Below, piece after piece: positions 23,952 to 51,691 of a DNA stretch of 64,000 bases. The first letter of the stretch is position 1. Each line of letters begins with the position of its first letter. The DNA is from Candidatus Zambryskiibacteriota bacterium (GTDB taxonomy: Bacteria > Patescibacteriota > Minisyncoccia > Phycocordibacterales > WO2-35-19): the NCBI GenBank assembly GCA_048499675.1, contig JASNZL010000003.1, positions 16,241-80,240 on the forward strand. Reading direction: 5' to 3'. The notes under the pieces are model-generated. The model saw nothing but the letters and a program-made list of their open reading frames with translations, had not been told where the DNA came from and did no database searches. A program made the position numbers and the translations under genes.

Positions 23952-24175
23952 AATTCGTGTCATTAGTGGGTTACTTTTTAATTTAGAATTTTTAATTTAA
24001 AACTCTATCGTTACTCGTAACTCGTACTTCGTATATCCTTTCTTATTCGTGTAATAAATTGAGTGATTAGTAGGTTTTACTTTCTAACTTGCGCCTTTAT
24101 GAACTTTTTAACTAATCCCCCTCGTATCTCGTACTTCGTAACTCGTACCTCGTTTTCAAAATTGGTGTCGCGCCC
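23952..24175 (+). repeat. 224-bp element carrying two arrays of CGTAACT-type heptamer repeats; left copy of a near-identical inverted-repeat pair
   Basis: The reverse complement of 46797-47019 matches it with only about 3 mismatches over 224 bp. Confidence 0.85.
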
Positions 24176-24360
24176 ACTTTACAAACCCTCAAAACTATTG
24201 ACAAATAACGTATAATTTGCTACAATGTTTTTATCGACATTGCCTTGTGCTTGTCGGGTCGCTCGTGCGCTCTTTCTCGGAGTCATATTGCATAGAATTG
24301 GAATTTTCCGGTTTTGCAATCCATGTCGGGAGCGAGAACTTTCTACGAAAGGAAAGAAAA

Positions 24361-24813
24361 ATGAGAACGAATGATGAGTACATTGTTAACTTGGTGAAGC
24401 AAGTCGTCGGCAACTCGACGATCTCCGGATTTAAAAGTCTGAGGACCCTCCAACCGGACGCTTGGTTCCTTTTCCTGTACCACAGGATCAAAGCCAAAGT
24501 CTTGAAAATGAACGATGAGACTTTGGGAAGAATCTGTGGTTATGGGCACAACAAAAACTTCAGTGAACCGATTAATTCCTCAGTCGGGTTCATTTTCAAG
24601 ACTGGCATCGAGGAAGTACAATCGCACCCTCTGGATCTCAACCTTTCTGGTCGTGAGCTCCTCGAGGAGATCGCGATCAGGACGATTGTAGCGGTCACCT
24701 GCGACATCGTCATACAGGAAGCGTACGAAGAAATTCGCCGCACCGAGCAGGGGAATGAATACCAGTTTGATAGCGTCATGGCCAAATACCTGCATTCTGG
24801 CCGCCGGTTGTAG
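24361..24813 (+). CDS. Hypothetical protein, first gene of a GC-rich four-gene islet
   Basis: SD aaaggaaag upstream of MRTNDEYIVN. No recognisable domain. GC is roughly 50% against about 33% in the flanks. Confidence 0.4.
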   Translation: MRTNDEYIVNLVKQVVGNSTISGFKSLRTLQPDAWFLFLYHRIKAKVLKMNDETLGRICGYGHNKNFSEPINSSVGFIFKTGIEEVQSHPLDLNLSGRELLEEIAIRTIVAVTCDIVIQEAYEEIRRTEQGNEYQFDSVMAKYLHSGRRL

Positions 24814-24849
24814 AAGTTCTTTCAATATTGGGCCAACACTTGATTGGCC

Positions 24850-24890
24850 CTTCCACCAGATAAAATTTGAAAAAGTTTTATGCGGTGGGA
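24850..24890 (+). repeat. 41-bp hairpin repeat cttccaccagataaaatttgaaaaagttttatgcggtggga (copy 1)
   Basis: Exact direct repeat of 25494-25534. Forms a ccacc...ggtgg / ataaaa...ttttat stem. Sits just upstream of the next gene. Confidence 0.6.
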
Positions 24891-24985
24891 GGAAACTTCC
24901 AAATCCGGCCAGTGCGCAGGCCTTTAAAACATTTGCCACTTTTTCCGAATGTTGCAAACTCGGAATCAAAAGAAAGGAACCCCTC

Positions 24986-25456
24986 ATGATTGAGAATCTG
25001 TTCCATGCAAAGATTGTTCTTTCAAACGAGGAGTGTCAGACTCTCTCCTCAATTCACCCGATGTATAAATTGCCAAAAGAGATCGGGGTAATCACTTTCC
25101 TTGGTGTCGAGGAAGGAGAATACTATAGTTTTAACACCGTACATCTGCTGATTCGTTTTGATTCATTTGCCAAGCAAGAGAAGGCAATGATGGAAGAGGT
25201 CATCACCCGCGTATTCGGAAAAGGTCGTGGGGAGATGCTTAACAACAACAGCGAACAGCGGGAGTACTCCTACAATGCGATCATCAAAATGTCGCTAAAA
25301 TACCCCCTCCGAAACCCGAAAAAGTTAATCAAGAAGAGGGCGGGAATGTTCGCAAAAGAAATCCTGAAATGGCGACAAGAACAGATTCGTCGTCACAAGA
25401 AGGAAGAGGAACAGGACTGGCAAGAGATGAGGCGTGACATGCCCGAATGGGTATAA
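24986..25456 (+). CDS. Hypothetical protein, GC-rich islet gene 2
   Basis: SD aaaggaa upstream of MIENLFHAKIV. The hairpin agcaggagag-ttta-ctctcctgct follows. Confidence 0.4.
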   Translation: MIENLFHAKIVLSNEECQTLSSIHPMYKLPKEIGVITFLGVEEGEYYSFNTVHLLIRFDSFAKQEKAMMEEVITRVFGKGRGEMLNNNSEQREYSYNAIIKMSLKYPLRNPKKLIKKRAGMFAKEILKWRQEQIRRHKKEEEQDWQEMRRDMPEWV

Positions 25457-25493
25457 ACGGCGATGAGCCTAGCAGGAGAGTTTACTCTCCTGC

Positions 25494-25534
25494 TTCCACC
25501 AGATAAAATTTGAAAAAGTTTTATGCGGTGGGAG
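25494..25534 (+). repeat. 41-bp hairpin repeat (copy 2)
   Basis: Identical to 24850-24890. Precedes the membrane-protein gene. Confidence 0.6.
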
Positions 25535-25585
25535 TAGTCCCAAAATCCCTCCGTCAAGAGACGGAGGTTAAAAAAGGAGTTCTTT

Positions 25586-25912
25586 GTGAAAAAGTTGCGA
25601 GAATTTTTTCAAGCAATAAGCCAATGGACTCAGTTGGTTGGCTTGATTGTGTACATCGTGATTATGTTTGCCTTGATTCTGAAGATTTTGGAACCGATGT
25701 CTTCGGCCATCACCTTCATGATTGCGGCCATACTCACGATTCACACTTTCGATCGTAAGCTTCTGACCATCGGGGCGTTCGTGGGAATCTTTCTCTACAT
25801 CTTGTCCTGGCCAATCACCGGCGAGTACGGGTTGTACTTCGGACTCTCCGTCTGGGCCACTGGGTTCTTCCTTTGGTTTTGGGCGGTTTGCCAATCGTTC
25901 AAACCAATCTGA
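25586..25912 (+). CDS. Small integral membrane protein (three TM segments; holin-like topology)
   Basis: GTG start with a perfect AAGGAG SD. Hydrophobic segments LVGLIVYIVIMFALIL, AITFMIAAILTI and FVGIFLYILSWPI...FFLWFWAV. Confidence 0.5.
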   Translation: MKKLREFFQAISQWTQLVGLIVYIVIMFALILKILEPMSSAITFMIAAILTIHTFDRKLLTIGAFVGIFLYILSWPITGEYGLYFGLSVWATGFFLWFWAVCQSFKPI

Positions 25913-25920
25913 AGGAGAAT

Positions 25921-26151
25921 ATGATGACAGGGATCCATTTTTTTCATGGTGATTACGGACGAGGCGGTAAAGACGGCTTCGTCCATGTTGTAGACAAATG
26001 GTGTGTGCAAACTCCGCAAGGAAAAAAACACATCACCAAAGAAAAGACTGATAGAAGAGATTACAGGATGACCGATTGCGACGGCTCCTGCGAACCGAAG
26101 CAGGAAGCGTTACCGGTCGACATCGCCAACATCGCGAGCACGGTTAAGTAG
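25921..26151 (+). CDS. Hypothetical small protein, GC-rich islet gene 4
   Basis: AAGGAG SD then MMTGIHFFHGDYGRGGKDGF. Cys-containing. Confidence 0.35.
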   Translation: MMTGIHFFHGDYGRGGKDGFVHVVDKWCVQTPQGKKHITKEKTDRRDYRMTDCDGSCEPKQEALPVDIANIASTVK

Positions 26152-26503
26152 TCGCGTGGTGCGCCGATAATCAAGCGTGTATACAAACCGCCCCTGAGAG
26201 CCGTTGCTCCCCGGGCGGCTCTTTTTTATAACAATCTCCTCTTTACCAAGCTTCTAGCTTCCAGCTTATTGCTCTTCGCCCCCTGTCTTATTTAGAATAA
26301 TTACTTGTCCCCGCGTAGTTTTAACGAAGTGGGAGGTCAATTAGTGCAATTAGTATAATTCTGTTATCTTACCTCCAACCTTCTTTCTCCTAGTTTCCAA
26401 CTTCTTTTTTTAGGTCAATTAGAGAAATTAGAACAATTAGGTTAATTTCCTTCTTTTATATTATCTTATCTCTAAGCTTCAAGCTTTAAGCTCTTCGCTT
26501 CCA

Positions 26504-26827
26504 CTAAATCAATTTAAAATCAATCATTTTTACAATGGTATCAGGATTAACTTTCTCTCCATAGTATCTTCGATATGTCTCATACATTTTCTCCTCACTT
26601 TCATATTTTTCGTGCCCTTCAAAATCACCGTCTTGTAGATCTTTGAGTTTTTTCTCTCTGACTTTGGTTATCAGCGCTTTAGCAAATTGCTCCTCCGTAT
26701 CCTTATTAACCAAAACGAGTTCATCACCCACGCACAAATCTTTATCGTCAAACAATCTCCATGTTGAAGTCTTTTCCCCATCAAGAACCATCGAAACCAA
26801 ATGTGGCATAAATTTTAATGTTTTCAT
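26504..26827 (-). CDS. ASCH (PUA-like) domain protein
   Basis: LKFMPHLVSMVLDGEKTSTWRLFDD...GDELVLV fits the ASCH N-terminal pattern. Last gene of the five-gene minus-strand operon. Confidence 0.55.
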   Translation of the reverse strand: MKTLKFMPHLVSMVLDGEKTSTWRLFDDKDLCVGDELVLVNKDTEEQFAKALITKVREKKLKDLQDGDFEGHEKYESEEKMYETYRRYYGEKVNPDTIVKMIDFKLI

Positions 26828-26848
26828 ACGTTTATTCTCAAATCAATC

Positions 26849-27346
26849 TCAAAAAAATCCAAACTTTTTGTAATTCTCTATAAGTTCAAGGGCTGTTTCG
26901 TAATCAATATCTCCCTCTTTTGATTGCGCCCATTCTTCAGCTTCTTCTATACTATCATGAGCAAGCAAAAACATTGTCCGAGTCAAAATATTTGGATTGT
27001 TGCCTTGATATTCCAAAGCTTTTTGCGAATACTCCTTCATTTTTTCCTTATCTTTTTTCCAATTTGCGCAACTTATCGCATGATGATACCAAAACCAAAG
27101 AATATCATCTCTCCATTCCCTTTCATCCTCTGTTAATTCAGGTTCATTCACATTTTCCAAAATATACTTTACTTTATTTTGAATTTGGTCAGGATTATCA
27201 TAATCCCACTCCTCTGTGACAAATAATTTGTTTTCTTGTTCTGAATATAAATTAGACAACTCTAAAGGGGTAGTCGCGCCCATCAAATCATAAGCCTCCC
27301 TCATAGGACTTTTTTCTTTATCAAACTTTTGCGGTTCTGATTCCAT
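26849..27346 (-). CDS. Hypothetical acidic protein
   Basis: 165 aa. No recognisable domain. Co-oriented with its neighbours and tightly spaced. Confidence 0.4.
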   Translation of the reverse strand: MESEPQKFDKEKSPMREAYDLMGATTPLELSNLYSEQENKLFVTEEWDYDNPDQIQNKVKYILENVNEPELTEDEREWRDDILWFWYHHAISCANWKKDKEKMKEYSQKALEYQGNNPNILTRTMFLLAHDSIEEAEEWAQSKEGDIDYETALELIENYKKFGFF

Positions 27347-27397
27347 GTGTTTATTTGTAGTGATTTATTATGAGCCGTGTCAAATAAGTTTATCGAA

Positions 27398-28087
27398 CTA
27401 TTTTAATCTTTGTTCCCGTACCTTGTCTAGCTTCTCTTTATCAATTTTTGTTCTTTCCCAATCAGTAGGTATTACATTTAATACTTTCTTATTTGGAATA
27501 TCTACATCAAAAACCATATCTTTCATTTTCCAATTCCTCCGCAAACCAATCTGCTCATATTTTTGTTGTATTTCATTTACAATTTCTTGAGCTTGCTTGA
27601 GTAAATCTTGTTTATCTGATTCGGTGAGATTTGCCTCATGTATAGGTCTCATTCCATCATTCGTCCAGCGAATACCTAGAATCTTTTGCATAACTATAAG
27701 ATGTTCGTTATTTCGTTTTATTTTTGCTACAGGAATAGGGGCTGGTAAACCAAATTCTCTAGCAATTTCCATTATTGAATATTCATAAAACGGATCACCA
27801 GATTTTCCAACTTGAGATTTTTCAGTGTTTACTTTCTTGCCCACAGTCTGCAATTCTAATCCTTCTGAGTTGCGCCAGACAGGCAGATCTTTGGTACAAG
27901 TCGGGTCTTCTTTTACTACACCTTGCTCATCATATTGAATTTCTCCAGACTTAATATTTCTTCCTTCTCTTTCAAAATATCCAAAAGGATCAGATTTAAA
28001 TTCTTCCGGCACAAAAGCTTCAAAATCTTTCTCAATTTTTATCTCTGCAATTGGAATATTTTCAATCCGATTTGGTTGCTCTTCCAT
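27398..28087 (-). CDS. Hypothetical protein (229 aa)
   Basis: No clear domain. A weak kinase-like C-terminal segment (LIVMQKILGIRW...KDMVFDVD) is speculative. Confidence 0.4.
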   Translation of the reverse strand: MEEQPNRIENIPIAEIKIEKDFEAFVPEEFKSDPFGYFEREGRNIKSGEIQYDEQGVVKEDPTCTKDLPVWRNSEGLELQTVGKKVNTEKSQVGKSGDPFYEYSIMEIAREFGLPAPIPVAKIKRNNEHLIVMQKILGIRWTNDGMRPIHEANLTESDKQDLLKQAQEIVNEIQQKYEQIGLRRNWKMKDMVFDVDIPNKKVLNVIPTDWERTKIDKEKLDKVREQRLK

Positions 28088-28091
28088 AGGT

Positions 28092-28391
28092 TTATTTTAA
28101 TTTAATTATCTTTTTGACCACCGAATCAACAAACAATCTAAAAGCTGGTCTCTTTTCTTTTTCATAAACAATTTTTACACCCAGTATATGTCCTTTTGGA
28201 CAAGCAAGGTATTTAGGTGTTGCTACAGGCACTTTAGGATCTGATATTCTATCCAAATACATTCTACGAAGAATCCCCGGACCATCTTTTTGATAGTGAC
28301 AAACTAAAGATTCACACTTCTCGCAAAAAATTCTCAACATACGACTATACCCTCCCCGCACCTTCTTATATTTATCATTCTTAAATTTCAT
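28092..28391 (-). CDS. Hypothetical zinc-ribbon protein
   Basis: CEKCESLVCH...CPKGH, a four-ligand Cys/His arrangement. 99 aa. Confidence 0.4.
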   Translation of the reverse strand: MKFKNDKYKKVRGGYSRMLRIFCEKCESLVCHYQKDGPGILRRMYLDRISDPKVPVATPKYLACPKGHILGVKIVYEKEKRPAFRLFVDSVVKKIIKLK

Positions 28392-28395
28392 AGGT

Positions 28396-28809
28396 TTATT
28401 TCCTATTTATCATATCCGAATAATGTTCAAGCATAAAATCATGATAAAACTTGTTATCGGAAAGCATTTTGAAAACATTTGCCTCGGCAACCTTTGGTTC
28501 ATTGGTAAATTCAGCACACAAATCATCAATTTCTTGCTCATTCTCTAATGAAAGTTCATATTCCCTAACACTACCATCTTTAAATTTAAATATAAAAATT
28601 ATTTCTTTTTCTCCTATCACATCATTCCAAAACCCTGCTTCTAATTTAGTTTTTATAATTTCTCTATACTCCCCTAACTTCTCTTCCGGTATTTTAATCG
28701 CCCTGTCCCCATCCTCATCCTTTTCTTCAATACTCACACCCAAATCCACCAACTCCTCGTCTTTTATTTTCTTCCCACCCATCAAATAACTTAAACAAAT
28801 ATTTTTCAT
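28396..28809 (-). CDS. Hypothetical protein, first gene of the five-gene operon
   Basis: 137 aa, acidic. A TAGAATAATTAG leader motif lies immediately upstream. Confidence 0.4.
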   Translation of the reverse strand: MKNICLSYLMGGKKIKDEELVDLGVSIEEKDEDGDRAIKIPEEKLGEYREIIKTKLEAGFWNDVIGEKEIIFIFKFKDGSVREYELSLENEQEIDDLCAEFTNEPKVAEANVFKMLSDNKFYHDFMLEHYSDMINRK

Positions 28810-29021
28810 GATTTTTTAGAATAATTAGTGCAATTAGGTTAATTAGGTTAATTTCCTCTTATCTCTTCTTCCAATCCTTAATCTTCAGCATCTTAGCTGA
28901 CATCTCCTCAATCGAAATCTTCTGCCTCTCCTTCCACCCTATAAACTATAACCCTCTGTCTTTCACCACATTTCAATTTATAAAAGCAAACTTATACATA
29001 GGATTATGTATACAAGAATTT

Positions 29022-32000
29022 TTATGCAACCAATTCATTGACGCTTTCGTACACATACCCAAAAATTTTTGAGGTTTTTGATTCGATCAAGCCTTCATCA
29101 TACGGCTCAGGTAGTTCATCATACAAAACATCTTTTATAGTTACCAAAACCTTTGCTCTACCCTGTTGAGTTTTTCTCCAATCAAGAACAAAAGCTGTTT
29201 GTCTCAATTTCTGTAACAAATCTTTTGCAACTTTCTTGATCTCCTTAATTTCATTTTCTTTCAAGTCTTCTTTATAAAGCAAATCAAAAATCGCAAGCTC
29301 TTCTTCAGTCAGCTCTTCTCTCACCCCTCTTTTTTCTTCATCGTTTAAAGATTCTGCAAATTTCATCAAAGCCTCAAAAAAATCTTCAATATTTTTTGAG
29401 CCAGAATTATATTCTGAAAGTAATTTTTCAAATTGCTCTACTAGTTTTTGTCTTGTTGGATTAAGTCGCACCAATTCTTCAAGTTTTTCTTTCAAAGATT
29501 GCTTCAATTTTTCTGCTTCTTTTCTTTTATTTTTTTCAAAATACTTTCGCAATTTCTCAAAATCAATCTTACTCAAATCATACGGCTTATAATCTTCAGA
29601 AATCACATACCCTTCAGCAGTGATTGCATTATCAAGAAGCTCTTCAATAGCGTCTGCAACGTCTTCTACATTCACATCTTTTCGGGTCAAGATTCGCACA
29701 CGCTCTGCCAGAACTCGATACAATTTTACTACATTAAAAAATTCACTCGCACTTGGATCAGGCATAATAGCCCCCAAAAGACTTGTCGCGCGATTACTCA
29801 TCATCAAAAATTCGTTCTTGGATTCCTCATTAGTCAAAATGGCATCCACAGCACCATCAATCAAAGCTAGTTTTTCAAAATCAACAGATTTTTCTATATC
29901 TAAAATATCAATAGAATGTTCATTACAATATTTATCAAGCTCACACAAAACTCCTCGTAATTCATTTACCAGTTCTGTTTTTGGTTTTATGGGCTTTGCA
30001 TCTTCATCACCTCGCGCTCCATAAATAGCCAAAGCTTTTTTCAGACTTCGAAATACTCCGATATAGTCCACAATCAATCCATTTGTCTTTGCGCCCCAAA
30101 CACGGTTTGCACGAGCAATCGTTTGCATCAATGTGTGATTTTTCATCGGCTTATCCAGATACACCGTCGAAATAATCGGTGCATCAAATCCAGTCAGCCA
30201 CATATTGCAGACAATCACAATTTTCAAAGGATCATTTACATCTTTGAATTTCTTTTCCAAATCCTCATTTATCATTCTTCGGCGATGAGTTTCTATATCA
30301 AGCCCAAGCTTTCGGAAATCATCCACTTCGTTTTGAGCCGAACTCATAACTACCGCAATATCAGGACAGTTTGGCTGCGCCTTCATTTTGTCATACATTT
30401 TCACCGCAGTTGGTCGATCTATCGCCACAAACAACGCCTTACCATCATTCCCTTGGCTGTTAAAATGTTCAATCACATCACGGGCAATAGTGTTCAATCG
30501 TTCTTCTCTCGTGATCAAATGATATTCAGTATTAAATTCTCGTTCAAGCTTTTTCTCTTGATCATCATCAAGCTCAAAAGTTTCAAGCACTGTTCCCAAA
30601 TCCTGCCCTAAACTCTCCAAATCAATCTGCAGCTCTGGAATACGGTTCTCGTAATACAAAGGCACTGTCGCCTTGTCATCCACAGACTGCTTGAAATCAT
30701 AAATACTGACATAGTCTCCAAAAGTATTCTTGGTTTGTTCTTCTTCGCCAGAAATAAGCGGAGTTCCTGTAAATCCGATAAATGAAGCATTCGGTAAAGC
30801 CCGACGCATATTGAGCGCCAGAGTGTCATACTGGCTTCGGTGAGCCTCGTCAGTCATCACGATAATATCGCTTCTATCTGAAAGCTTTGGAAACTCTTTT
30901 TCTGCTTCTTGCAATTGGAATTTGTGAATCAAGGTAAAAATATTGCGATGGTCTTCGGTCAAAAGCATTCTCAAATGATCAACACTTTTTGCTCTCACCA
31001 TTTCTTCAGGCTCAAGCACCGCACCCACACCCGCAAAGTTTGCATAAATCTGCTTGTCGAGTTCCTGCCTATCTGTCACCACAAGAAAAGTATAGTTCCC
31101 TTCATATTTTCGAAAAATCTTTTGAGCGAAAAATACCATAGAATAACTCTTTCCTCCTCCTTGTGTATGCCAAAAGACCCCAATTCGTCCATTGTTTTCT
31201 TCTCGCTTTTCAAAAGATTTAATCGCATTATTTACTCCTAAATACTGATGATTTTTACCAATCAATTTTATCGTTCCCTTGCTCGTCTCTTGAAACAATA
31301 CAAAGTTTTCAATAATATCAAGCAGGCGCGTTCTGTCGCAGATACCACGAAGCAGGGTTTCCAAATCCACCTTTCCTTTTTCTTCTTCATCACTAATTCT
31401 TTTCCAATCAGAAAAATGTTCAAACCCGCTCGTAATAGAACCCATCTTTGCATCAAGTCCATTTGAAATAATCAAAAGCTGGTTGTACCAAAATATCTGC
31501 GGAATTGTGTCTTTATAGTCTCGAATATTTCCATCAAATGCATCTCGCAAGTTTTTGTGCGCAGCTTTGAGCTCGACAAACACTAACGGCAACCCATTCA
31601 CAAAACCCACCAAGTCCGCTCGGCGTTTATACATATCACCCGAAATCCACATCTGTGACACCAAAGTAAAATGATTGTTCTCTGGATTATCAAAATCAAT
31701 CACACGCACCGTTTCCACATCACGAGTTCCGTCATCACTCACCACATCCACCTTGACCCCGTTTTTCAAAAGCTCATAGATTTCTTTGTTCGCTTTGACC
31801 ATACTCATTTTTGAGCGGTCTTTAATGATTTCTTCTATTGCTTCATCAATAGCACTTTTTGCGATGTTTGGATTTAATTTCTCCAAAGCAGTCCGAAGAC
31901 GAGAAAACAAGACAACCTGACCCTGATGTTCCCTCCCAAGCCTTGCATCACCTTCGTCAGTATAGGCATTCACAAAATCCATTTCGCCATCTTTTCCAGC

Positions 32001-32066
32001 CCAAAGTTCCGACAAAAGCCGGATTGCAGGTTGTTCTATGAGATTGTCTTCGTTAAAGGGGTTCAT
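29022..32066 (-). CDS. hsdR: Type I restriction enzyme R subunit
   Basis: 1014 aa with an HsdR N-terminal domain, SF2 helicase motifs (Walker A, then DEAHRS) and a long coiled C-terminus. Confidence 0.9.
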
Positions 32067-32075
32067 ATTATTATA

Positions 32076-33551: not shown

Positions 33552-33556
33552 AAAAT

Positions 33557-34762: not shown

Positions 34763-34873
34763 CCCAGTACTAAAATTTTAAATTAAAACTAATAATTTTA
34801 TCAGCGTATATCTCCTTATTCTTTTGTGTATTTTTATTTAACATAATCAAAAATTTAGTACCGGACAAGTATA

Positions 34874-36145: not shown

Positions 36146-36149
36146 ATGA

Positions 36150-36764: not shown

Positions 36765-36876
36765 TTTTTATATGATATCATATAAATTCTGAAAAGCAAA
36801 CAAAAATGTGTATAATTATACATAAACTATACACATTTTATACATATTCTGATTTTTGCTTGTAAAATAAGGCTTT

Positions 36877-38439: not shown

Positions 38440-38448
38440 ATTGTTTAT

Positions 38449-39126
38449 TTATAACATTTTTTCTTTCCTAAAACTATAAAAGCTTTTTGAAGTTATTATC
38501 ACATGATCCTCTATTTCTATCCCTAAAATCTCTGCGGACTGCTTGAGCCTTTTTGTAACTTCTTTGTCTTCTGGTGAAGGATCCAAGCTTCCGGACGGAT
38601 GATTGTGTGCCAGGATAATACTTCCGGCGTTAAGCCTTATCGCATGTTCAAAGACTTCTCGAGGATGCACAAGCGAGGCGTCTAAAATACCAATAGAAAT
38701 AATTTGTCTTTCGATAAGATTTTTCTGCGAATCAATATAAAAAGCTATGAAGTGTTCTTTCTTAGAATCTTTAATATCTGTGCAGAGTTGCCATATATCT
38801 TTTGGCGAAAGTATTTCTATTTTTTCATTGCTTGAAAACCTGTTTCCAAGTTCAAGGAGTGCAAGAATTTGCAAGGCTTTTGCTTTTCCCAATCCTTTTA
38901 TTTCAAGCAAATCTTCAAGTGTAATATTTTGCAAACCTTTCTTTTTTGTTTTCTGTAAAACTTTTTTAGAAAGTTCAAGTACATTTAAACCTTTAATTCC
39001 CGAACCAAGCAAAATTGCAAGGAGTTCAAAATCTTTTAATTTCTTAGAACCATACTTTTCCAATTTTTCACGAGGCAAATCTACTCTTGGAAGATTTTTT
39101 AATTTCATATTACAAATTATTTTCAT
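38449..39126 (-). CDS. radC: RadC-like JAB/MPN domain protein
   Basis: Helix-hairpin-helix N-terminus and the JAMM motif HNHPSGSLDPSPED. Confidence 0.85.
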   Translation of the reverse strand: MKIICNMKLKNLPRVDLPREKLEKYGSKKLKDFELLAILLGSGIKGLNVLELSKKVLQKTKKKGLQNITLEDLLEIKGLGKAKALQILALLELGNRFSSNEKIEILSPKDIWQLCTDIKDSKKEHFIAFYIDSQKNLIERQIISIGILDASLVHPREVFEHAIRLNAGSIILAHNHPSGSLDPSPEDKEVTKRLKQSAEILGIEIEDHVIITSKSFYSFRKEKML

Positions 39127-39676
39127 CCATTAATTCACGAATGGTTTTTCCTTTATATGTCCAAAAAATTGTGCCTTGTACGGCTTTCCATTTTTTATTA
39201 AACTTATCTTTCAAAACTTTCTGCGCAGATTTCGAAAGAGATGTATTATCGCCATTAAAGATAATAATATTACCTTTTCCAACTACTGCGGTAATATCTT
39301 GGTAAATATCATCTCCTTCTTTAAATTTAAGAATATCTCCCTCTTTTATACCAATTTTTGCAAATTTACCCTTAAGCTCGGAATCTTTTTCAAACGAAAT
39401 ATTTTTGTTATCTGAAATAAAATCACAAATCCTTTCTGGATGAACCTTTAAGAATTCTCTTTTTCTATTAATCCTCTGTTTTGCAAAATGTTGTAATATT
39501 TTTTGCTCTAATAATTCAACATTCTTCAAATCAAATCTTTCATATAATTGAAATCTTGTAGGTGTTGAGGTCTTGTTATTTAAGCTTTTTAACCTTTTAT
39601 CAATATCTCCAGTTATTCCAACTTTGCATATATTCGGCATAGAGATATTAGTAATAATATACAAAAAGTTTTTCAT
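39110..39676 (-). CDS. T5orf172 (GIY-YIG-like) domain protein
   Basis: FLYIITNISMPNICKVGITGDIDKRLKSLN matches the T5orf172/GIY-YIG-like N-terminal pattern. C-terminal region is uncharacterised. Confidence 0.5.
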   Translation of the reverse strand: MKNFLYIITNISMPNICKVGITGDIDKRLKSLNNKTSTPTRFQLYERFDLKNVELLEQKILQHFAKQRINRKREFLKVHPERICDFISDNKNISFEKDSELKGKFAKIGIKEGDILKFKEGDDIYQDITAVVGKGNIIIFNGDNTSLSKSAQKVLKDKFNKKWKAVQGTIFWTYKGKTIRELMDENNL

Positions 39677-39680
39677 ATAT

Positions 39681-40451
39681 TTAATTTATTATCACCTGTT
39701 TATCTGTTGTGTTGTCCCAAATTTCCCATTTTGAGAAATCAGGAATCATGTAAAAGGTTTCGCTTTCTTTGCCGCCAGAGTTTGCAACAGTTACATTTAT
39801 ATACATCACCTCCTTACCTCTAAGTGGAATTCCGGTACCCATATATACAAAAGTAGAGCCAGTAGTATTTTCAAGATTATATAAAATTGGCTTAGACCCA
39901 GTTGAATTTATTACTTCTAATCTCTGTATTGAACCAACCTTTCTAGTGTCATTTACAGTTGATTCTTTTATATTAAAAACAGCTTTTTTAATTACTATAT
40001 CGCGCGATGTATTAAATGGGAAAGTTATTTTGTTTGTATTTAAAATATAAGAAAAATTAAAATCAGAGAATTCATTATTTAGGTTTTCATTATTAAACTC
40101 ATTAGTTTTATTTGCTTTACAAATATCAAGACTAGAACTTAATGAATTTACTTTTTCCTTAAGTGAAGCATTTTCTTGAAAAAGAGTATTTATTTGTTTT
40201 TGTAATTCAGGATTATCAACAACTATTGTTTTTTCTATAATTTTTTCTTTAATAACCTCTTCTGTTTCTAATAATTTCCCACTATTATCAAAATTATTGT
40301 CATCCACATTGTCAATATTGTTGTTAGTTTCTTGAATAAAATTAGCACTATTTCTTTCAAACCACGAAAACGGATTCCACCAAGAGGCAAGTACTATGTG
40401 GGGCACAATAAACATCAATAAAAATACAACAATATATAATTTATTTCTCAT
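39681..40451 (-). CDS. Hypothetical secreted/membrane-anchored protein with a coiled-coil
   Basis: N-terminal TM helix, an Asn-rich linker, the coiled segment LQKQINTLFQENASLKEKVNSL, and a beta-rich C-terminus. Confidence 0.4.
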   Translation of the reverse strand: MRNKLYIVVFLLMFIVPHIVLASWWNPFSWFERNSANFIQETNNNIDNVDDNNFDNSGKLLETEEVIKEKIIEKTIVVDNPELQKQINTLFQENASLKEKVNSLSSSLDICKANKTNEFNNENLNNEFSDFNFSYILNTNKITFPFNTSRDIVIKKAVFNIKESTVNDTRKVGSIQRLEVINSTGSKPILYNLENTTGSTFVYMGTGIPLRGKEVMYINVTVANSGGKESETFYMIPDFSKWEIWDNTTDKQVIIN

Positions 40452-40731
40452 ATCATTTTATAATACTTAATACCCCCAGTATCCCACAATTTCCTTCAAA
40501 AATCCACATAACAAAATCATTCCACCGTGCCGTGGAATGATTGATTATCCCCGCCAATAACAGGTTGGGCATTCCCAATATTCATCAAATTTATAGGCCT
40601 TGGACTACTTTTTCATAACATTAAATTCCCTCTCCTTTTTCAATTCCAAAACCACACACAGGGTAGCCCTGTGCAATATCACCTTTCAATCTCTTCCCTA
40701 ATCATTCTCCCTTTTTGGAGAATGATTAATT

Positions 40732-41241
40732 TTATCCCAAAACCTCATTAATAAATTCGATTTTTTTGCGATAGTATTCTCGGTAATTTAGGCCGGCACA
40801 ACCATCTTTTAATTGCTTGTATCGTTCGAGTGCTTCTTTGTTTACCAATAGATATTTAAAAAAATTATCATTATCAATCCAGCTTTGGTGATATTTATTG
40901 GTGAGCATTATTTCAATTTTTGTTCCATCTATTTCTGCTAAAAATTTTGTTCGTTCAAGCGGGTAGACACTTTTTGGCTTGCCAAAAACTGCTTCCATTT
41001 TGGGTGTGTATTCCGCAATCTCATTTGGAGTAAGTGGGATGTATACATCAATCTCTCTCTGCCCTGAAATACCCAAACCCGAAGCACCTCTGTGGAGTAC
41101 TGTGACATCGCCGAGGACTGCTTGGATTTGTGATTTTATTTGTTCAAATTTTTTTGGAGCTTTTTCGTCATAAGGAAAAATCTCCACCACACCATCTGTA
41201 TTCAAATGATTAACCCATTTTTTTTGTTCTGGAGTAAGCAT
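40732..41241 (-). CDS. GrpB-family (nucleotidyltransferase-fold) protein
   Basis: GASGLGISGQREIDVYIPL and the C-terminal region fit GrpB/DUF (PF04229)-like proteins. Confidence 0.55.
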   Translation of the reverse strand: MLTPEQKKWVNHLNTDGVVEIFPYDEKAPKKFEQIKSQIQAVLGDVTVLHRGASGLGISGQREIDVYIPLTPNEIAEYTPKMEAVFGKPKSVYPLERTKFLAEIDGTKIEIMLTNKYHQSWIDNDNFFKYLLVNKEALERYKQLKDGCAGLNYREYYRKKIEFINEVLG

Positions 41242-41265
41242 AATATGAACTATATTTAAAAAGAT

Positions 41266-41889
41266 TTACTTATCACTACGAACAATCCATACCCTACCAA
41301 ATTTGGACCATCTTTTTATGACAATAGATTTGGGTAATTTCATATAATACCTGTCGCTGTCTAGAGCTTTCTCGTATTCCAAATCGGGGGCTTGGTGGCT
41401 ATCAAAAACATAAAAATTCGATTCGTCATATCCATAAACAAACATTACATGATCTAGAAGCCCTCCCATACCCAAAGAAATATCTACTCCTGTTGCGTAT
41501 CCGCGGTCTACCGATTGTTCAATCTCTTTTATTTTATTTTCTACATTTGAAATATTTGGTATGAATAATGCAAGAATAAAACTGAAGAAAGAATTTATAT
41601 CTCTATTATTAATAGTCAGTTTTAGTTTTAAACTTGAAAGGAGCTTTGGTAAATATAAAAATTGTAGCCCTGTCCACATGAGCCACTCTGGAACTCTAGG
41701 CCCCAATACTTTGTTTTTCTCTAATTGCACCGCGTTTAGAGCGTTCCCGTTGTAACTTTCGGGATAATAGTAATTGAGAGCGTAATAAATAAAATCTCTT
41801 CCACATCGATTTTTTACCAATTTTCCATCTATTCCAATTTCTCTTTGCACAAAACTAAACTCGTCTATGTTTCTATTTAGTGTTTTCAT
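41266..41889 (-). CDS. Hypothetical protein (possible papain/C39-like peptidase fold)
   Basis: 207 aa with Cys/His candidates (RCGRDFIYYA...HVMFVYGYDESNFYVFDSHQ). Weak call. Confidence 0.3.
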   Translation of the reverse strand: MKTLNRNIDEFSFVQREIGIDGKLVKNRCGRDFIYYALNYYYPESYNGNALNAVQLEKNKVLGPRVPEWLMWTGLQFLYLPKLLSSLKLKLTINNRDINSFFSFILALFIPNISNVENKIKEIEQSVDRGYATGVDISLGMGGLLDHVMFVYGYDESNFYVFDSHQAPDLEYEKALDSDRYYMKLPKSIVIKRWSKFGRVWIVRSDK

Positions 41890-41908
41890 TTTTTATTCCA
41901 ATTTTGAA

Positions 41909-42682
41909 TTATAGTTTCTTTCCAATGTAGAATACATATCCGTAAAATTCTTTGTATTTATTATACAGTTTCGCTTCTTTCTTTTCATTGGCGACTAAGT
42001 CTTCTGCAGTTTTGTTGTCTTTATATTTTTTTAAAAACTTTTGTTGCGCAATGATTTGAGGTTTGTAAAAATTATCTATCCAACAATACTCAGGCAGAAT
42101 AAAAGTGGCAACTGGAACATAACCAACTTTTTGCATAATAGAAACTTTGTTTGCAATAGTGTCAATTTGCGGATAAGCACTATTCCAAAAATCGTCAATT
42201 TCTTTTGGTCGTTTTTCGGTAAACCACGATGCCTCAGAGATTGCGACGTACCCACCCTTCTTTAGAAATCTTTTCCATTTTTCTAAACCTTTTTGAAAAC
42301 CAATGTTATAAATTGAACCTTCGGACCAAATTAAATCTAGTTCCTTGTTTTTGAAAGGTAAATTATCCATTGAGCCAACAATTCCCTTAACTCTTTTTTG
42401 GAGTCCAAGTTTTTTTGCATTGGAGTTTAACTTTTCTATAAACTCAGGAAACAAATCAATCGCCGTTATTTGTCCTTTCGTGTTTTTTGCCAGCGTCATT
42501 GTTGGTGCACCAGTTCCACACCCGATATCAGCAATTTTTGATTTGTTATTTAGTCCGTCAATAAAACTTAATGCCTTGAGGGTGGTCTCGGGGCTCCCTG
42601 GTCCTTGTTGCTTTACACCACAAAAATACTCACATATAAGTTTAAAATCAAAGTCGTGTATTGTTTTATCTTCTTCAGACAT
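41909..42682 (-). CDS. Class I SAM-dependent methyltransferase
   Basis: Motif [17 protein letters not shown] and motif post-[12 protein letters not shown]. Confidence 0.75.
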
Positions 42683-42712
42683 ATTTATTTTATATCTTGA
42701 TTATTAATTCTG

Positions 42713-42731
42713 GCGGAGGGTAAGAGATTCG
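42713..42731 (-). repeat. Degenerate partial copy of the tRNA-Ser 3' end (acceptor 3' strand ...CTTACCCTCCGCCA), probable att-site scar
   Basis: On the minus strand it reads accgaatctcttaccctccgcca. It shares 18 of 19 nt with the copy at 42866-42884 (one C/T difference). Confidence 0.5.
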
Positions 42732-42865
42732 GTCACACATAATTTACTGCTGAAAATTTGTGCTACCCCGCCTCGCGCCGTCGCGCTCCGGCCTTCTCAT
42801 CTCTTCTTCCTCACGCAATGATGGTCCACGCGAATAGCTATTCAAAGCTATCCTTGCGGATCATT

Positions 42866-42884
42866 GCGGAGGGTAAGAAATTCG
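42866..42884 (-). repeat. Partial duplicate of the tRNA-Ser T-arm and acceptor 3' half
   Basis: On the minus strand it reads caagagttcgaatttcttaccctccgcaatg, against tRNA-Ser gcaggttcgaatcctgtctcctccgcaatg. It lies immediately 3' of the intact tRNA. Confidence 0.5.
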
Positions 42885-42928
42885 AACTCTTGGTGGGTTT
42901 CCCCACGGCCACTTTCTCCCGCACATTG

Positions 42929-43013
42929 CGGAGGAGACAGGATTCGAACCTGCGGTACCTTGCGGTACACCCGCTTTCCAAGCGAGCGCATTCGACCGCT
43001 CTGCCACTCCTCC
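42929..43013 (-). tRNA. tRNA-Ser (anticodon GGA), type II with long variable arm
   Basis: Hand-folded. Acceptor ggaggag/ctcctcc, 3-bp D stem, anticodon arm ctcgc-ttGGAaa-gcggg, variable hairpin tacc-gcaa-ggta, T arm gcagg-ttcgaat-cctgt, discriminator G. Confidence 0.85.
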
Positions 43014-43142
43014 GTAATATGAGGGATTGCAATTTACATTACAATCACTTCGCTCTTGTGTAAATTGGGAACAATCTCCCGCACTATAACCCTACCTGAC
43101 GGCAGGCAGGGCTATGCGAACCCTCCATTATAAACCAAAACT

Positions 43143-44021
43143 TTAAGCCATCCCTCGAAGCCTCTTTATCCTTTCTTCTGTCGGTGGATGTGTACTCCAA
43201 AGATTGCTCATCTTTTTTGTTGCACCAAATGGACTTGCGATAAACATATGAGCGGTAGCATTGTGAGCATTTCGGAGCGGCGACTGATAAGAAGAAATTT
43301 TTTCAAGAGCGCCTGCCAAACCTTCTGGGTATCGTGTGAGGAGGGCAGCGGAAGCGTCTGCCAAATATTCTCTTCTTCTAGAAATTGCTAGTTTTATAAA
43401 TGTCGCAATAATTGGGGAGAGTATAACAAGAACAATACCGACTATCATTATGATTCCACCTGCTTTTCCATCTCTTCTACCTCCTCCAAGTGAGCTTCTC
43501 AAAAAGAAATCTGCCATTATAGCAACGAGTCCAACAAGCACAACAACAACACTCATTAGCAAAATGTCTCTGTTGCCTATATGAGCCAATTCATGCGCAA
43601 CAACTCCTTCGAGTTCCGCCCTGTCTAATCTCTCCAAAAGTCCAGTTGTCACCGCCACAACGGCATGGTTTTTGTCTCGTCCTGTTGCAAATGCGTTCGG
43701 TGCCGGATCATCAATTACATATATTTTTGGCATTGGAAGACCGGATGCGATAGATAAGTTTTCTGTTAAAGTATAAAAATCAAAATATTCTTCCCTCTTT
43801 GCTTCTCGAGCTTTTGCAATACTCAAAACTATTTTGTCAGAATGCCAATAACTAACAAAATTCATTACTAGACTCAAAATTATTGCAAAATAAAAAATAT
43901 TCGCATTCCCATAATACATAGAAAAGAAATACCCAAGAGCTCCAACCAAAACAAAAAAGACGCTCATAAGAGCATATGTTTTCCAGACATTCTCGCTTTG
44001 ATGCGTATACATTGTTGCCAT
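43143..44021 (-). CDS. htpX: Zinc metalloprotease HtpX (M48)
   Basis: Two TM helices, then HELAHIGNRD (HExxH) and the downstream E of the M48 family. Confidence 0.85.
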   Translation of the reverse strand: MATMYTHQSENVWKTYALMSVFFVLVGALGYFFSMYYGNANIFYFAIILSLVMNFVSYWHSDKIVLSIAKAREAKREEYFDFYTLTENLSIASGLPMPKIYVIDDPAPNAFATGRDKNHAVVAVTTGLLERLDRAELEGVVAHELAHIGNRDILLMSVVVVLVGLVAIMADFFLRSSLGGGRRDGKAGGIIMIVGIVLVILSPIIATFIKLAISRRREYLADASAALLTRYPEGLAGALEKISSYQSPLRNAHNATAHMFIASPFGATKKMSNLWSTHPPTEERIKRLRGMA

Positions 44022-44154
44022 AACAAAACTATATCATATAAAAAAACTTTTATAAACTATTATTTTAAGGCGTTTTTTACAAATACACAGCTTATCAAGT
44101 ATTTTAATTTTTAGACTTTTTGTTGCTATACTATTATTTGCATATATAAATAAT

Positions 44155-45549
44155 ATGAATGAACAAAAGAAAAGCCACATAAGAGTTCCTCCCCACAATA
44201 CAGAAGCAGAAAGAGCGTTGCTTGGATCCATAATGCTTAGACCAGAGGTTTTGTTTGAGGTATCAGATATCGTATTTCCGCAATCCTTTTATTCTGAAAA
44301 ACACAAAATAATTTTCGAGACAATGATTGACTTGTTTTCTAGAAGGAATCCAACTGACATGCTTTCTGTTTCTGCAAAACTCAAAGACAAGAAAGTAAGC
44401 GATGGGACGATGCTAGATGAAATTGGTGGAAACACCTATTTAAGTGAGCTTGTAAACTCAGTTCCCAGTGCATCAAACGCACAGTACTACGCCCAAATAA
44501 TTCAAAAGAAATTTATTGCCAGAAATTTGATTAGTGCATCTGATTTTATTTCGTCTATTGGCTATGATGAGACCCAAGAATTAGAAGAGATTTTGGATCA
44601 GGCCCAAAAAAGAATTTACGAAGTTACAAATATATCAAGTATTCACAAATTTGTTGATCTAAAAGATGAGCTCACCGAAGCGTGGGAAAGACTCGACAAA
44701 CTCCACAATTCTGGAGATGGTCTCAGGGGAGTTCCTTCTGGTTTTGCAGATATAGACAACAAATTATCTGGCTTTCAAAAATCTGATTTGATTATACTTG
44801 CCGCTCGGCCTTCTGTTGGTAAGACTGCATTTGCTCTTGATATTGCAAGACAAGCTGCCGTAGAACACAATGTTCCTGTTGGAATTTTTTCTCTTGAAAT
44901 GAGTTCACAACAATTGGTAGACAGAATGCTTGCTTCTCAGGCAAGTGTTGATGCCTGGAAACTGCGTACTGGTAGAGGCATCAAGGAAGATGATTTTACT
45001 GCCATCAGGCAATCGCTAGATGTCCTGTCAAAAGCACCAATTTTTATTGACGACCAACCCGGAAATAACATATTAAAAATGCGTTCAGTTGCAAGACGAC
45101 TAAAAAATGAGAAGGGTCTAGGCCTTATCATTGTTGATTACTTGCAACTAATGACCACGACCAAGAATTATGATTCTATGGTTAACCAAGTGACCGAGAT
45201 TTCTAGATCGCTCAAAAATTTGGCACGTGAGCTTGAGGTACCAGTACTTGCTCTTTCTCAGTTGTCTCGTGCTGTTGAACAAAGAGGTGGAAAACCAAAA
45301 CTTTCTGACCTAAGGGATTCTGGTTCTATCGAACAGGATGCTGATGTTGTTATGTTTATTCACAGAGAAGACAAATCAAAAGGTGTAGAAGAGGCTGAAA
45401 AGACAAACATTGCAGAGATTTTGATTGAGAAACATCGAAATGGCGCAACTGGCAAGGTAGAACTCTTCTTTAACGAAAAGAAGGCAACATTTCAGTCATT
45501 AGAAAAAGCTGAGTTTAGTGGCGCAGAGGCCGAGTTTCGCGACTTTTAA
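44155..45549 (+). CDS. dnaB: Replicative DNA helicase
   Basis: DnaB N-terminal domain (PPHNTEAERALLGSIM) and a RecA-like C-terminal domain with Walker A AARPSVGKTAF, Walker B LIIVDYLQL and an arginine finger. Confidence 0.95.
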   Translation: MNEQKKSHIRVPPHNTEAERALLGSIMLRPEVLFEVSDIVFPQSFYSEKHKIIFETMIDLFSRRNPTDMLSVSAKLKDKKVSDGTMLDEIGGNTYLSELVNSVPSASNAQYYAQIIQKKFIARNLISASDFISSIGYDETQELEEILDQAQKRIYEVTNISSIHKFVDLKDELTEAWERLDKLHNSGDGLRGVPSGFADIDNKLSGFQKSDLIILAARPSVGKTAFALDIARQAAVEHNVPVGIFSLEMSSQQLVDRMLASQASVDAWKLRTGRGIKEDDFTAIRQSLDVLSKAPIFIDDQPGNNILKMRSVARRLKNEKGLGLIIVDYLQLMTTTKNYDSMVNQVTEISRSLKNLARELEVPVLALSQLSRAVEQRGGKPKLSDLRDSGSIEQDADVVMFIHREDKSKGVEEAEKTNIAEILIEKHRNGATGKVELFFNEKKATFQSLEKAEFSGAEAEFRDF

Positions 45550-45624
45550 GATACGAAGTAACGAATGAGCTGCGAATAGCTACGAAAATACGAAGTAAAA
45601 AAGGGATTCAAATTATATAAATAG

Positions 45625-46026
45625 TTGATATTAATGGAAACAAAAAAAGGACAGAGGGTAAGCAGAAAAGTTATTTATCCTGATCTTTCTTATATTATTG
45701 TGGGAATACTTTTTGAAGTCCACAAGGAACTGGGGGAATACGCTAGAGAGAAGCAGTACGGTGATTTGATTGAAATGAAATTAAAAGAAAAAAATATTTT
45801 GTATATTCGCGAATTATCGATTGGAGGCACTGGAAATATTTTAGATTTTTTAATTGAAGATAAGATTATTTTAGAATTAAAATCTGTCAGAGAAATTAAT
45901 AAGGAATATTACCGTCAATTACAGAATTATCTCCAGCAAACAAATAAAAAATTAGGATTGTTGGTCAATTTCCGCACGTCTCACTTACGACCAATAAGAG
46001 TCTTAAAAATAGACAGTAAAAAATGA
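45625..46026 (+). CDS. GxxExxY family protein (PD-(D/E)xK-like)
   Basis: [24 protein letters not shown]...[15 protein letters not shown]...LGLLVNF matches the GxxExxY family consensus. Confidence 0.65.
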
Positions 46027-46166
46027 GCTTGTATTTTATGCTTTTTTGGAAGAAATCAAAAAGAAAGCACGCTTATATTTTTTACTTTTTATGATTTATA
46101 AGTTAGATTTTATACATTCGAATTATTATTTGTAGTCATTCGTAACCTATTCGTTATTTCGTATAT

Positions 46167-46796
46167 ATGAATTCTATAGAAAAATTAACACAAATATTTT
46201 CGGAGTTTCCAGGGATTGGACCAAGGCAGGCCAGAAGGTTTGTCTATTATCTACTTACCCGAAACACAGGAATTTTGGAGGAACTCTCAAAAAATATTCT
46301 AGATTTAAAAAAACAAGTTGCAGTTTGCGCCGAGTGTATGAGTTTTTATGAAAAAAAGCACGATAAGAGTAATACTTGCAAAGTCTGTAGTGACCACACC
46401 AGAGAACGAGCTACAGTAATGATTGTTCAAAGAGATGTTGATATGACATCAATAGAAAAAAATGGCAATTTTAATGGAGTGTATTTTGTGTTAGGTGGCT
46501 CAGTGCCAATACTAGAGAAAGAGCCAGAAAAGAAGATTAGACTTTTGGAATTTAAGAATTTTATTTTGAATAAAAATAAAGAAGGGTTAAGTGAAGTAAT
46601 CCTCGGAATGAACTGGAATCCTGAGGGTGAGAATACAGCGCAATTTATTGAGAATTTTTTGAATAAAACATTAGAAAAAGAAATTCAATCTAAAAAAGTT
46701 AAAATCTCACATTTAGGCAAAGGTCTTTCGATGGGCACGGAGATTGAGTATATTGATCCGGATACTTTAAGAAATGCACTAAAGAATAGAAATTAG
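46167..46796 (+). CDS. recR: Recombination protein RecR
   Basis: N-terminal HhH (FPGIGPRQARRFVYYLL), a C4 zinc finger (CAEC...CKVC), and a Toprim domain. Confidence 0.9.
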   Translation: MNSIEKLTQIFSEFPGIGPRQARRFVYYLLTRNTGILEELSKNILDLKKQVAVCAECMSFYEKKHDKSNTCKVCSDHTRERATVMIVQRDVDMTSIEKNGNFNGVYFVLGGSVPILEKEPEKKIRLLEFKNFILNKNKEGLSEVILGMNWNPEGENTAQFIENFLNKTLEKEIQSKKVKISHLGKGLSMGTEIEYIDPDTLRNALKNRN

Positions 46797-47019
46797 AACG
46801 CGACACCAATTTTGAAAACGAGGTACGAGTTACGAAGTACGAGATACGAGGGGGATTAGTTAAAAAGTTCATAAAGACGCAAGTTAGAAAGTAAAACCTA
46901 CTAATCACTCAATTTATTACACGAATAAGAAAGGATATACGAAGTACGAGTTACGAGTAACGATAGAGTTTTAAATTAAAAATTCTAAATTAAAAAGTAA
47001 CCCACTAATGACACGAATT
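46797..47019 (-). repeat. Right copy of the near-identical 224-bp inverted repeat (heptamer-array element)
   Basis: The reverse complement matches 23952-24175 with about 3 mismatches. It starts at the first base after the recR stop codon. Confidence 0.85.
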
Positions 47020-48209: not shown

Positions 48210-48213
48210 TAGG

Positions 48214-48241: not shown

Positions 48242-48247
48242 CAAAAT

Positions 48248-51690: not shown

Positions 51691-51691
51691 T

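Follow-up and report, generated by a model that had tools for sequence, protein, structure and literature searches.

Near-identical inverted repeats around a 22.6-kb segment with dnaB and recR in a Zambryskiibacteriota contig: probable members of a small intergenic family homogenised by gene conversion

Background

In the window analysed here, the whole 64-kb stretch (64,000 nucleotides, nt) taken from contig JASNZL010000003.1 of a Candidatus Zambryskiibacteriota bacterium, two nearly identical intergenic sequences lie in inverted orientation on either side of 22.6 kb that include dnaB and recR. Do these two sequences delimit a unit that can move or invert, or are they related in another way? 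Genomes of the Patescibacteria (candidate phyla radiation, CPR) are small and generally considered repeat-poor. The original prediction for this locus, made by a model from the sequence alone, proposed recent duplication or ongoing gene conversion and saw in the pair a possible substrate for inversion. We believe that the left copy (L) and the right copy (R) are probably members of a small, clade-specific, non-coding intergenic family whose copies are homogenised by ectopic gene conversion.

Extent and identity of the inverted pair

A repeat search of the window returned two arms of 232 nt that are 98% complementary and have 22,626 nt between them; in self-BLAST the pair has an E-value of about 1e-110.

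23941-24172, + strand: left copy L, made of tandem units A (about 23952-24042) and B (about 24043-24157), then the terminal motif ATTGGTGTCGCG
46799-47030, - strand: right copy R, in the recR-VKOR spacer

Compared base by base, the arms differ at 5 positions of 23941-24172, 4 of them within the first 11 nt and the fifth at 24094, which leaves a near-identical block of 221 nt (23952-24172) with a single mismatch (C at 24094 vs T at 46877). The near-identity proposed at the outset is thus borne out, with exactly 3 mismatches (24094, 24173 and 24174) over the range first assigned to the left copy, 23952-24175. The flanks are divergent, as had also been supposed: identity over 100 nt on each side beyond the block ends is 27% and 32%, that is, background, and local alignments of the flanks do not rise above shuffles (p 0.34-0.93). 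Since these alignments are not significant, we gave up the view that a conversion tract lies within an older and longer duplication, and replaced it by the comparison with a relative, L117. A 21-mer of the arm occurs in the window at L and R only (shuffles expect 0). The right copy had been said to begin at the first nucleotide after the recR stop codon; this needs correction, as the stop codon occupies 46794-46796 and the identical block starts at 46799, 2 nt past it.

The family within the window

A third copy, C3, which the original prediction overlooked, appears in self-BLAST as a match at 51554-51701 (87% over 150 nt); it is oriented as L, corresponds to the second half of the repeat and ends 1 nt before the truB stop codon. 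The copies were scored with R1, a sequence model made from eight copies, which gives 107.7 bits on L (24032-24174) and 104.2 bits on R. The other members and the heptad arrays are as follows.

51552-51692, + strand: C3, in the malic enzyme-truB spacer, with unit B followed by the terminal motif ATTCGTGTCCCG; R1 107.8 bits
47035-47088, - strand: extra degenerate tandem unit adjoining R, which matches part of unit A at 78% identity and consists of AT-rich octamers with TCGTANN heptads
52941-52975, + strand: family remnant ATTCGCGAACATTAGTAATTAGTGGGTTATC in the truB-uvrA spacer, read from the sequence
24120-24153, + strand: array of the heptad CTCGTAN, about 5 copies, inside unit B (Tandem Repeats Finder)
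24008-24026, 46818-46851, 46945-46963 and 51640-51671: the same heptad arrays

The 64-kb window therefore holds L, R, C3, the extra unit and the remnant, in different intergenic spacers, and further copies are present in three related genomes. A dispersed intergenic repeat family had been named as the finding that would speak against a special role of the pair, and it is largely what we see.

The build of the element is modular, by direct repetition: each of its two units, about 100 nt long, opens with ATTCGTGT..TTAGT(G/A)GGTT(TT)AC and runs through an AT-rich stretch into an array of TCGTANN heptads, and the whole element closes on ATTGGTGTCGCG; the full order is ATTCGTGT..GATTAGTGGGTTTTAC..TTTCTAACTT..ACTTTTTAACTAATC..ATTGGTGTCGCG. 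An end motif, ATT(G/C)GTGTC(G/C)CG, is common to all copies, and L, C3 and the L117 copy agree at every position of a 35-nt core, ACTTTCTAACTTGCGCCTTTATGAACTTTTTAACT, from which R departs by one change. The middle is variable: it consists of TCGTANN heptads in this genome, where the array is expanded relative to the copies of two relatives, L122 and L118, and of a GC-rich hairpin in L118. Intergenic TCGTA words in the window are nearly confined to the family copies. The element ends are direct repeats, ATTCGTGTC and ATTGGTGTC; no terminal inverted repeats join them, the window element has no terminal or internal palindrome, and the flanks of L, R and C3 show no duplicated bases of the kind left by a target-site duplication.

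Judged from its sequence, the element is non-coding. A small protein or type I toxin was rejected: the sole open reading frame (ORF) shared between copies (MNFLTNP...) is not hydrophobic and has no ribosome-binding site, and all differences in it between copies are non-synonymous, with no sign of purifying selection. A known or structured RNA was rejected as well, since Rfam gives nothing relevant, either at the gathering threshold over the whole window or at E up to 10 over 23850-24400, and neither strand folds significantly better than shuffles (z -1.0 and +0.5). A promoter or terminator inside the element was rejected too: none was called there, and the strong promoter at 24198-24226, outside the identical block, is that of the neighbouring cassette. 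A TIGR-Tas array was dropped on inspection: the period does not fit, box C/D motifs were not seen by eye, and a Nop domain has no match among the ORFs scanned with Pfam, which are a part of all ORFs.

Copies in related genomes

Searches with RecR place the window in the Patescibacteria, among the Parcubacteria/Paceibacteria of the Zambryskibacteria-Taylorbacteria type, the best species representatives having 67% RecR identity. In two closer loci, L118 (RecR 89% identical) and L122 (94%), a family copy stands directly after recR in the arrangement TAG-GA-CGCGACACCAAT; the middles of these copies differ, L118 having the GC-rich hairpin and L122 one or two heptads. L118 has a second copy in its malic enzyme-truB spacer. 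In L119-121 (RecR 86%) recR is followed by no element, the spacer is 121 nt long and its 76 nt on the VKOR side are 93% identical to the window; L119 carries a copy in the truB-uvrA spacer (16206-16306, R1 65.3 bits), which is fuller than the remnant at 52941-52975 of the window.

The left site can be compared in L117, an ENA contig with about 90% nucleotide identity, which was reached via a 94% identical homologue of isl2, the second ORF (24986-25456) of the cassette adjoining L. The shared context consists of tRNA-Val, S49 peptidase, msrA, msrB, the spacer and the cassette. At the L site the window's 213 nt are replaced in L117 by 35 nt (about 48 nt including the shared end motifs), beside a left flank that is 98% identical. 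This short version reads AATTCGTGTC-ATTCGAGTACATTAGTATATTAGTATCGCGTACAG-CTTTACAAAC (in a longer reading, ..CTAATTCGTGTC-ATTCGAGTACATTAGTATATTAGTATCGCGTACAG-CTTTACAAACCC..) and retains the element end motifs AATTCGTGTCATT and TCGCG. The 25 nt in its middle do not occur in L, so the L117 version is not a simple deletion derivative of L. A further L117 copy lies between an S49 paralogue and a SLFN/AlbA_2-domain gene.

Counted by relative, L118 has two copies, L119 two family-related stretches and L117 two, one each in the latter two being scored by R1. The model scores 52-108 bits in the window, L117, L118 and L119, and at most 18 bits in 1.09 Mb of more distant relatives. Exact matches to the core 21- and 23-mers are absent from the viral collection, and those to the 23-mer from the genome and metagenome collections as well. 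The family is apparently limited to a narrow Patescibacteria clade.

The L118 hairpin deserves a separate remark. About 58 nt long and GC-rich (CCGCCTGCCAGCGCC...GGCGGGCAGG), the same hairpin is carried by both family copies of that contig (4950-5010 and 9480-9540), between ATTCGTGTCATTCG and ATTGGTGTCGCG; G-U pairs make its fold better on the strand that is antisense to the flanking genes (z = -2.5). Among the stem-loop tests, the hairpin is present only in the L118 variant.

Concerted evolution and the conversion proposal

In the alignment of eight copies, those within one genome are far more alike than those at the same locus in different genomes. Within-genome identity ranges over 84-86% (85% for R vs C3 in the window, 84% for the recR-VKOR vs the malic enzyme-truB copy in L118); between the window and L118, same-locus identity is 58% for the recR-VKOR spacer and 53% for the malic enzyme-truB spacer. 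The flanking genes of the same two genomes are 82-86% identical. Such a pattern is the mark of homogenisation inside each genome. Because same-locus family copies follow recR in L118 and L122, this comparison of loci shows R as the copy ancestral at recR-VKOR.

We presume that the homogenisation proceeds via ectopic homologous recombination, that is, gene conversion. L would have formed recently, when R-type sequence overwrote a short family member that already stood upstream of msrB; the converted stretch would stop where the element itself does, at its end motifs AATTCGTGTCATT and GTCGCG, and this would produce the sharp 221-nt block with its one mismatch. Conversion onto the msrB site is proposed because R has orthologues, L differs from it at 1 of 221 positions, and the L117 site holds a different, short member. 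L is not a verbatim copy of R, since position 24094 is C in L, C3 and the L117 copy and T in R. The earlier suggestion of recent copying or gene conversion is supported by the difference between 84-86% within a genome and 53-58% at the same locus, and by the short member at the left site of L117.

A number of points weigh against this reading. Conversion is derived from sequence patterns, and the event itself is unseen. The same identity matrix would also result if a genome-specific mobile variant had invaded these spacers again and again. The comparison has 3-4 visible copies per genome as its base, from 64 kb here and from short contigs of the relatives. L117 and L118 share one metagenome assembly and show about 90% and about 84% nucleotide identity, respectively, so they are perhaps two organisms. 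No recA gene lies within the window, and the recombination machinery is our assumption. Finally, conversion alone leaves the placement next to stop codons unexplained, which hints at function or at targeted insertion.

Placement at stop codons: mobility or function

The end motif lies 1-5 nt from the stop codon of the converging gene, in a constant orientation, at three independent loci: recR, truB and, in L119, uvrA. Such placement may be due to a function at gene ends, to targeted insertion, or to the element being tolerated only at certain places. The codon TAG makes up 23% of the stops in the window and adjoins the element at recR, truB, uvrA (L119) and the S49 paralogue (L117). We considered TAG as a part of the element and found this uninformative, because recR ends in TAG in L119 too, where no element follows.

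Under targeted insertion, the element would be non-autonomous and mobile, mobilised in trans and inserting just after stop codons, and L would be a recent insertion, not a product of conversion. We regard this as unlikely, although it would agree with the sharp block boundaries, the end motif shared by all copies, the distance of 1-5 nt from the stops of recR, truB and uvrA (L119), and a presence that varies between close relatives. It is opposed by the lack of both terminal inverted repeats and target-site duplication, and the window has no intact transposase: its IS30-like pseudogene (about 17.2-18.3 kb) has no similarity to the element. Moreover, the L site in L117 already has a short family member with the same ends, and copies persist at the same locus across genomes, yet their middles differ strongly.

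The pseudogene itself (17216-18270) is interrupted by stop codons and lies outside the 22.6-kb segment. It was called IS30-like by eye from the translation, on account of a C-terminal FTHPYHSWEKGLVENTNRWIR stretch and an N-terminal helix-turn-helix region.

If the placement reflects function, the element would be a cis signal at gene ends, and the copies would owe their likeness to purifying selection, not to conversion. One could think of a 3'-end or termination signal, an antisense insulator, or an upstream regulatory module of the redox genes msrB, VKOR and malic enzyme. The orientation and the stop-proximal position, fixed at several loci in several genomes, would fit such a role, as would the near-invariance of the 35-nt core in L, C3, the L117 copy and (with its one change) R; the three downstream genes in the window (msrB, VKOR, malic enzyme) are all redox enzymes. 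We nevertheless consider a functional signal rather improbable. Selection leaves unexplained a single mismatch in 221 nt when same-locus copies across genomes are only 53-58% identical. No promoter- or terminator-like site was called inside and no fold is significant; the distance to the downstream start codon ranges from about 80 to 220 nt, and the downstream genes of the relatives include the non-redox truB and the SLFN/AlbA_2-domain gene.

As a speculation, to which we give little weight, this Paceibacteria clade, with few canonical terminators, might possess its own gene-end signal for 3'-end formation or antisense insulation, or else a new stop-targeting non-autonomous element; with both, the inverted copies could additionally drive reversible inversion of the segment with dnaB, recR and the restriction/abortive-infection island. 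Should the stop-proximal placement turn out to be functional, this would suggest that CPR bacteria have a gene-end signal not described so far.

The segment between the repeats and its possible inversion

The gene content originally ascribed to the segment is correct: the defence genes (hsdR/S/M, AbiEii/AbiEi), tRNA-Ser(gga), htpX, dnaB, the GxxExxY gene (PDDEXK_3) and recR were all found, hsdR/S/M and the methyltransferase being identified from translations and the Logan Pfam listing. The segment is not, however, a unit bracketed by the repeats. Related loci share the order htpX(-), dnaB, recR, VKOR, L21(-), rmuC(-), yqeY, [malic enzyme(-)], truB(-), uvrA-like ABC(-), to which the right part of the segment belongs. 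The distance from tRNA-Val(gac) to tRNA-Ser(gga) is 21.3 kb in the window (21577-43013) vs 3.5-4 kb in two relatives, L011 and L025; in L119/L120 there are about 3 kb of different genes, and only about 3 kb separate htpX from the PEP-CTERM and metallo-beta-lactamase genes, which in the window are found at 18-21 kb. The segment thus joins a variable hotspot, its left 19 kb, to 4 kb of conserved htpX-dnaB-recR backbone on the right; as such a mixture, the 22.6 kb are not a coherent or mobile unit.

The tRNA-Val/tRNA-Ser interval carries S49-msrA-msrB, the cassette, type I restriction-modification, AbiEii/AbiEi, an AAA_15 ATPase, RadC and a T5orf172 gene. At its right edge, just left of tRNA-Ser (42928-43013), two direct copies of a tRNA 3'-end-like 19-mer, GCGGAGGGTAAGA[G/A]ATTCG, lie at 42711-42735 and 42864-42900, 153 nt apart; they resemble remnants of attachment (att) sites or a tRNA pseudogene. 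In L118 a 532-aa large serine recombinase abuts htpX.

It remains to consider the arms as recombination sites of a reversible 22.6-kb inversion, by RecA-mediated crossover or by a dedicated recombinase, which we find very hard to sustain. The homology of L and R (221 nt, one mismatch, inverted) is adequate for RecA-type recombination and ample for a crossover; the proposed conversion between them implies that the two sites interact, and the gene map indicates that an inversion would leave the order gene-element-gene unchanged at each junction. Inversion of the segment by a crossover of its arms is therefore mechanistically possible, although unsupported. The junctions speak against it. Among the 69 related loci with at least 1.5 kb downstream of recR, the next gene is VKOR in 25 and L21 in 40 (together 65/69), and msrA/msrB are near recR in 0/69, so the right junction matches the relatives. 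In L117 msrB faces the same cassette, on its promoter side, so the left junction matches a relative as well. With both junctions matched there is no fixed inversion in the window, and the inverted arrangement, which the original prediction advised looking for in related genomes, was not found. In addition, the remaining copies of the family are not paired as inverted repeats, and most segment genes are on the same strand as the flanking genes.

The Pfam scan of ORFs at about 11.7-59.2 kb, which took in most ORFs of the segment (a few were identified by translation only), shows no resolvase, invertase, tyrosine recombinase or integrase domain in or beside it. An invertase switch was rejected, as no recombinase gene is present in the ORFs scanned in or beside the segment. 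A composite transposon, which had been discounted from the beginning, is rejected here too: the 232-nt arms have no conserved ORF, and there is no transposase among the segment ORFs scanned (most of them). For an att-bounded tRNA island, the arms are inverted, neither is in a tRNA gene, the segment holds backbone genes, and the scanned ORFs include no integrase. GC skew was set aside as a readout of inversion, being confounded by coding-strand bias.

The least credible explanation is that L was created in assembly, through a mis-join at a repeat or the chimeric insertion of recR-VKOR spacer sequence: the window is probably from a metagenome-assembled contig, an exact-sequence look-up of the closest RecR match (P0004, 100% in local alignment, on an NCBI contig) gave no match and no independent contig spanning the L junction was retrieved, but L departs from R at 24094 and agrees there with C3 and the L117 copy, its boundaries coincide with end motifs present at the same site in L117, in an inverted pair one correct junction implies that the other is correct (recR-VKOR is backed by 65/69 relatives), and the homology of an L117-type site to R, 13 nt + 5 nt, would be too short for a graph mis-join. 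An independent Logan contig (SRR21762701), 100% identical to the window, ends at 51618. This is k-1 = 30 nt past the last C3-specific base, 51588, as predicted for a k=31 graph entering the shared core, and the core is therefore multi-copy in the reads. Independent contigs across the L or R junction were not found: the Logan contigs retrieved stop short, with ends that fit a k=31 graph, and exact-protein look-ups with RecR, MsrB, VKOR and isl2 returned no record.

Other features of the window

The cassette that starts directly after L (24176-26225) is 2 kb long and has about 45% GC vs about 33% nearby. Its promoter at 24198-24226 is near-consensus (TTGACA, a 17-nt spacer, TACAAT and an upstream TG), and a terminator-like hairpin with a T-run was seen by eye at about 26190-26225. 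Two perfect hairpin-forming copies of a 42-nt repeat lie at 24850-24891 and 25493-25534. The four ORFs have no Pfam, PHROG or NCBIfam match and no viral relatives. In L117 the cassette is at the same site, but its first gene is unrelated and the last two ORFs are missing.

Two GC-richer spacers, 48210-48612 and 52457-52900 (+ strand), have strong promoter-like sites (TTGACA..TATACT at about 48214; TTGACA..TATAAT at about 52527) and terminator-like hairpins, on the strand opposite to the flanking genes. Each spacer may hold a non-coding RNA gene of about 320-340 nt; Rfam gives no match for either, even at E up to 1. Elsewhere a 151-nt direct repeat (19385-19535 and 20241-20391; 97% identical, in a region of about 47% GC) links the neighbouring PEP-CTERM-domain genes 19447-20091 and 20303-21100.

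Arrays with a period of 6-9 nt are about 8 times as frequent across the window as in shuffled sequence (23 vs 1-4) and are mostly intergenic; examples are 8685-8769, 26249-26492, 28832-28853, 47057-47143 and 50103-50141. Their density is similar in the closest relatives (2.4-5 per 10 kb), and there are few in more distant ones. Arrays of the type (AATTAGNN)n at 47110-47143, 51493-51515 and 28812-28857 stand directly upstream of the starts of VKOR, malic enzyme and the gene 28396-28809. The array upstream of VKOR is kept in L005 (10666-10701), whose RecR is 64% identical, and may therefore be a repeated -10-like or upstream promoter element.

The recR leader (46122-46166) and the leader (55672-55717) of an 87-aa ORF (55410-55673) are 87% alike, with ATTCGT words about 10 nt apart directly upstream of ATG. 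The uvrA-like gene (53052-55673) is split into two ORFs, of 630 aa and 87 aa, with a 465-nt gap. A split is also seen in relatives, as 871-aa and 88-aa ORFs in L119 and as gaps of about 420 nt in the tblastn matches of others; it could be due to an intervening sequence or to a poorly conserved linker.

Implications and comparison with known systems

The concerted evolution of a dispersed intergenic element would indicate active ectopic homologous recombination in Patescibacteria and offers a marker for tracking it. The repeat pair should not be taken as the boundary of a mobile or invertible module, and the defence genes sit in a variable tRNA-Val/tRNA-Ser hotspot unrelated to the repeats. These repeats of 150-230 nt can cause breaks or wrong orientations in assemblies of this clade.

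Homologous recombination between rrn operons, insertion sequence (IS) copies or prophages produces inversions, and a near-identical inverted pair of more than 200 nt would suffice as a substrate here too. Conversion without crossover and inversion with crossover are two outcomes of one recombination intermediate. The difference is that no alternative orientation was seen in our case and the junctions match those of relatives.

Miniature inverted-repeat transposable elements (MITEs), such as the Neisseria Correia elements, and the enterobacterial repetitive intergenic consensus (ERIC) resemble the element in their size of 100-250 nt, their intergenic position and their presence/absence variation among relatives. 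Terminal inverted repeats and target-site duplications, both defining for MITEs, are lacking in the element.

The closest known kinds would be modular, stop-codon-proximal intergenic repeats such as REP/BIME (repetitive extragenic palindromes and the bacterial interspersed mosaic elements built of them) and BOX. Like REP/BIME, the element is short, non-coding and dispersed, occupies spacers just past stop codons, has a mosaic build with content that varies by locus, and would serve as a substrate for ectopic recombination. REP units are imperfect palindromes of 20-40 nt that form stable hairpins and are linked to RAYT (REP-associated tyrosine) transposases; the window element, in contrast, has no significant fold or palindrome, and no RAYT-like or IS200/IS605-like gene was seen. 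The BOX elements of Streptococcus pneumoniae have conserved end modules and a variable middle module, and here, too, the ends (ATTCGTGT... and ...ATTGGTGTCGCG) are kept around a middle of heptads, a hairpin or nothing. BOX elements have a predicted stable fold and more than 100 copies per genome, whereas the present element counts 3-4 copies in 64 kb, without a significant fold, in a narrow Patescibacteria clade. On the strength of its sequence features, we place the element as a new, clade-restricted member within the class of dispersed intergenic repeats.

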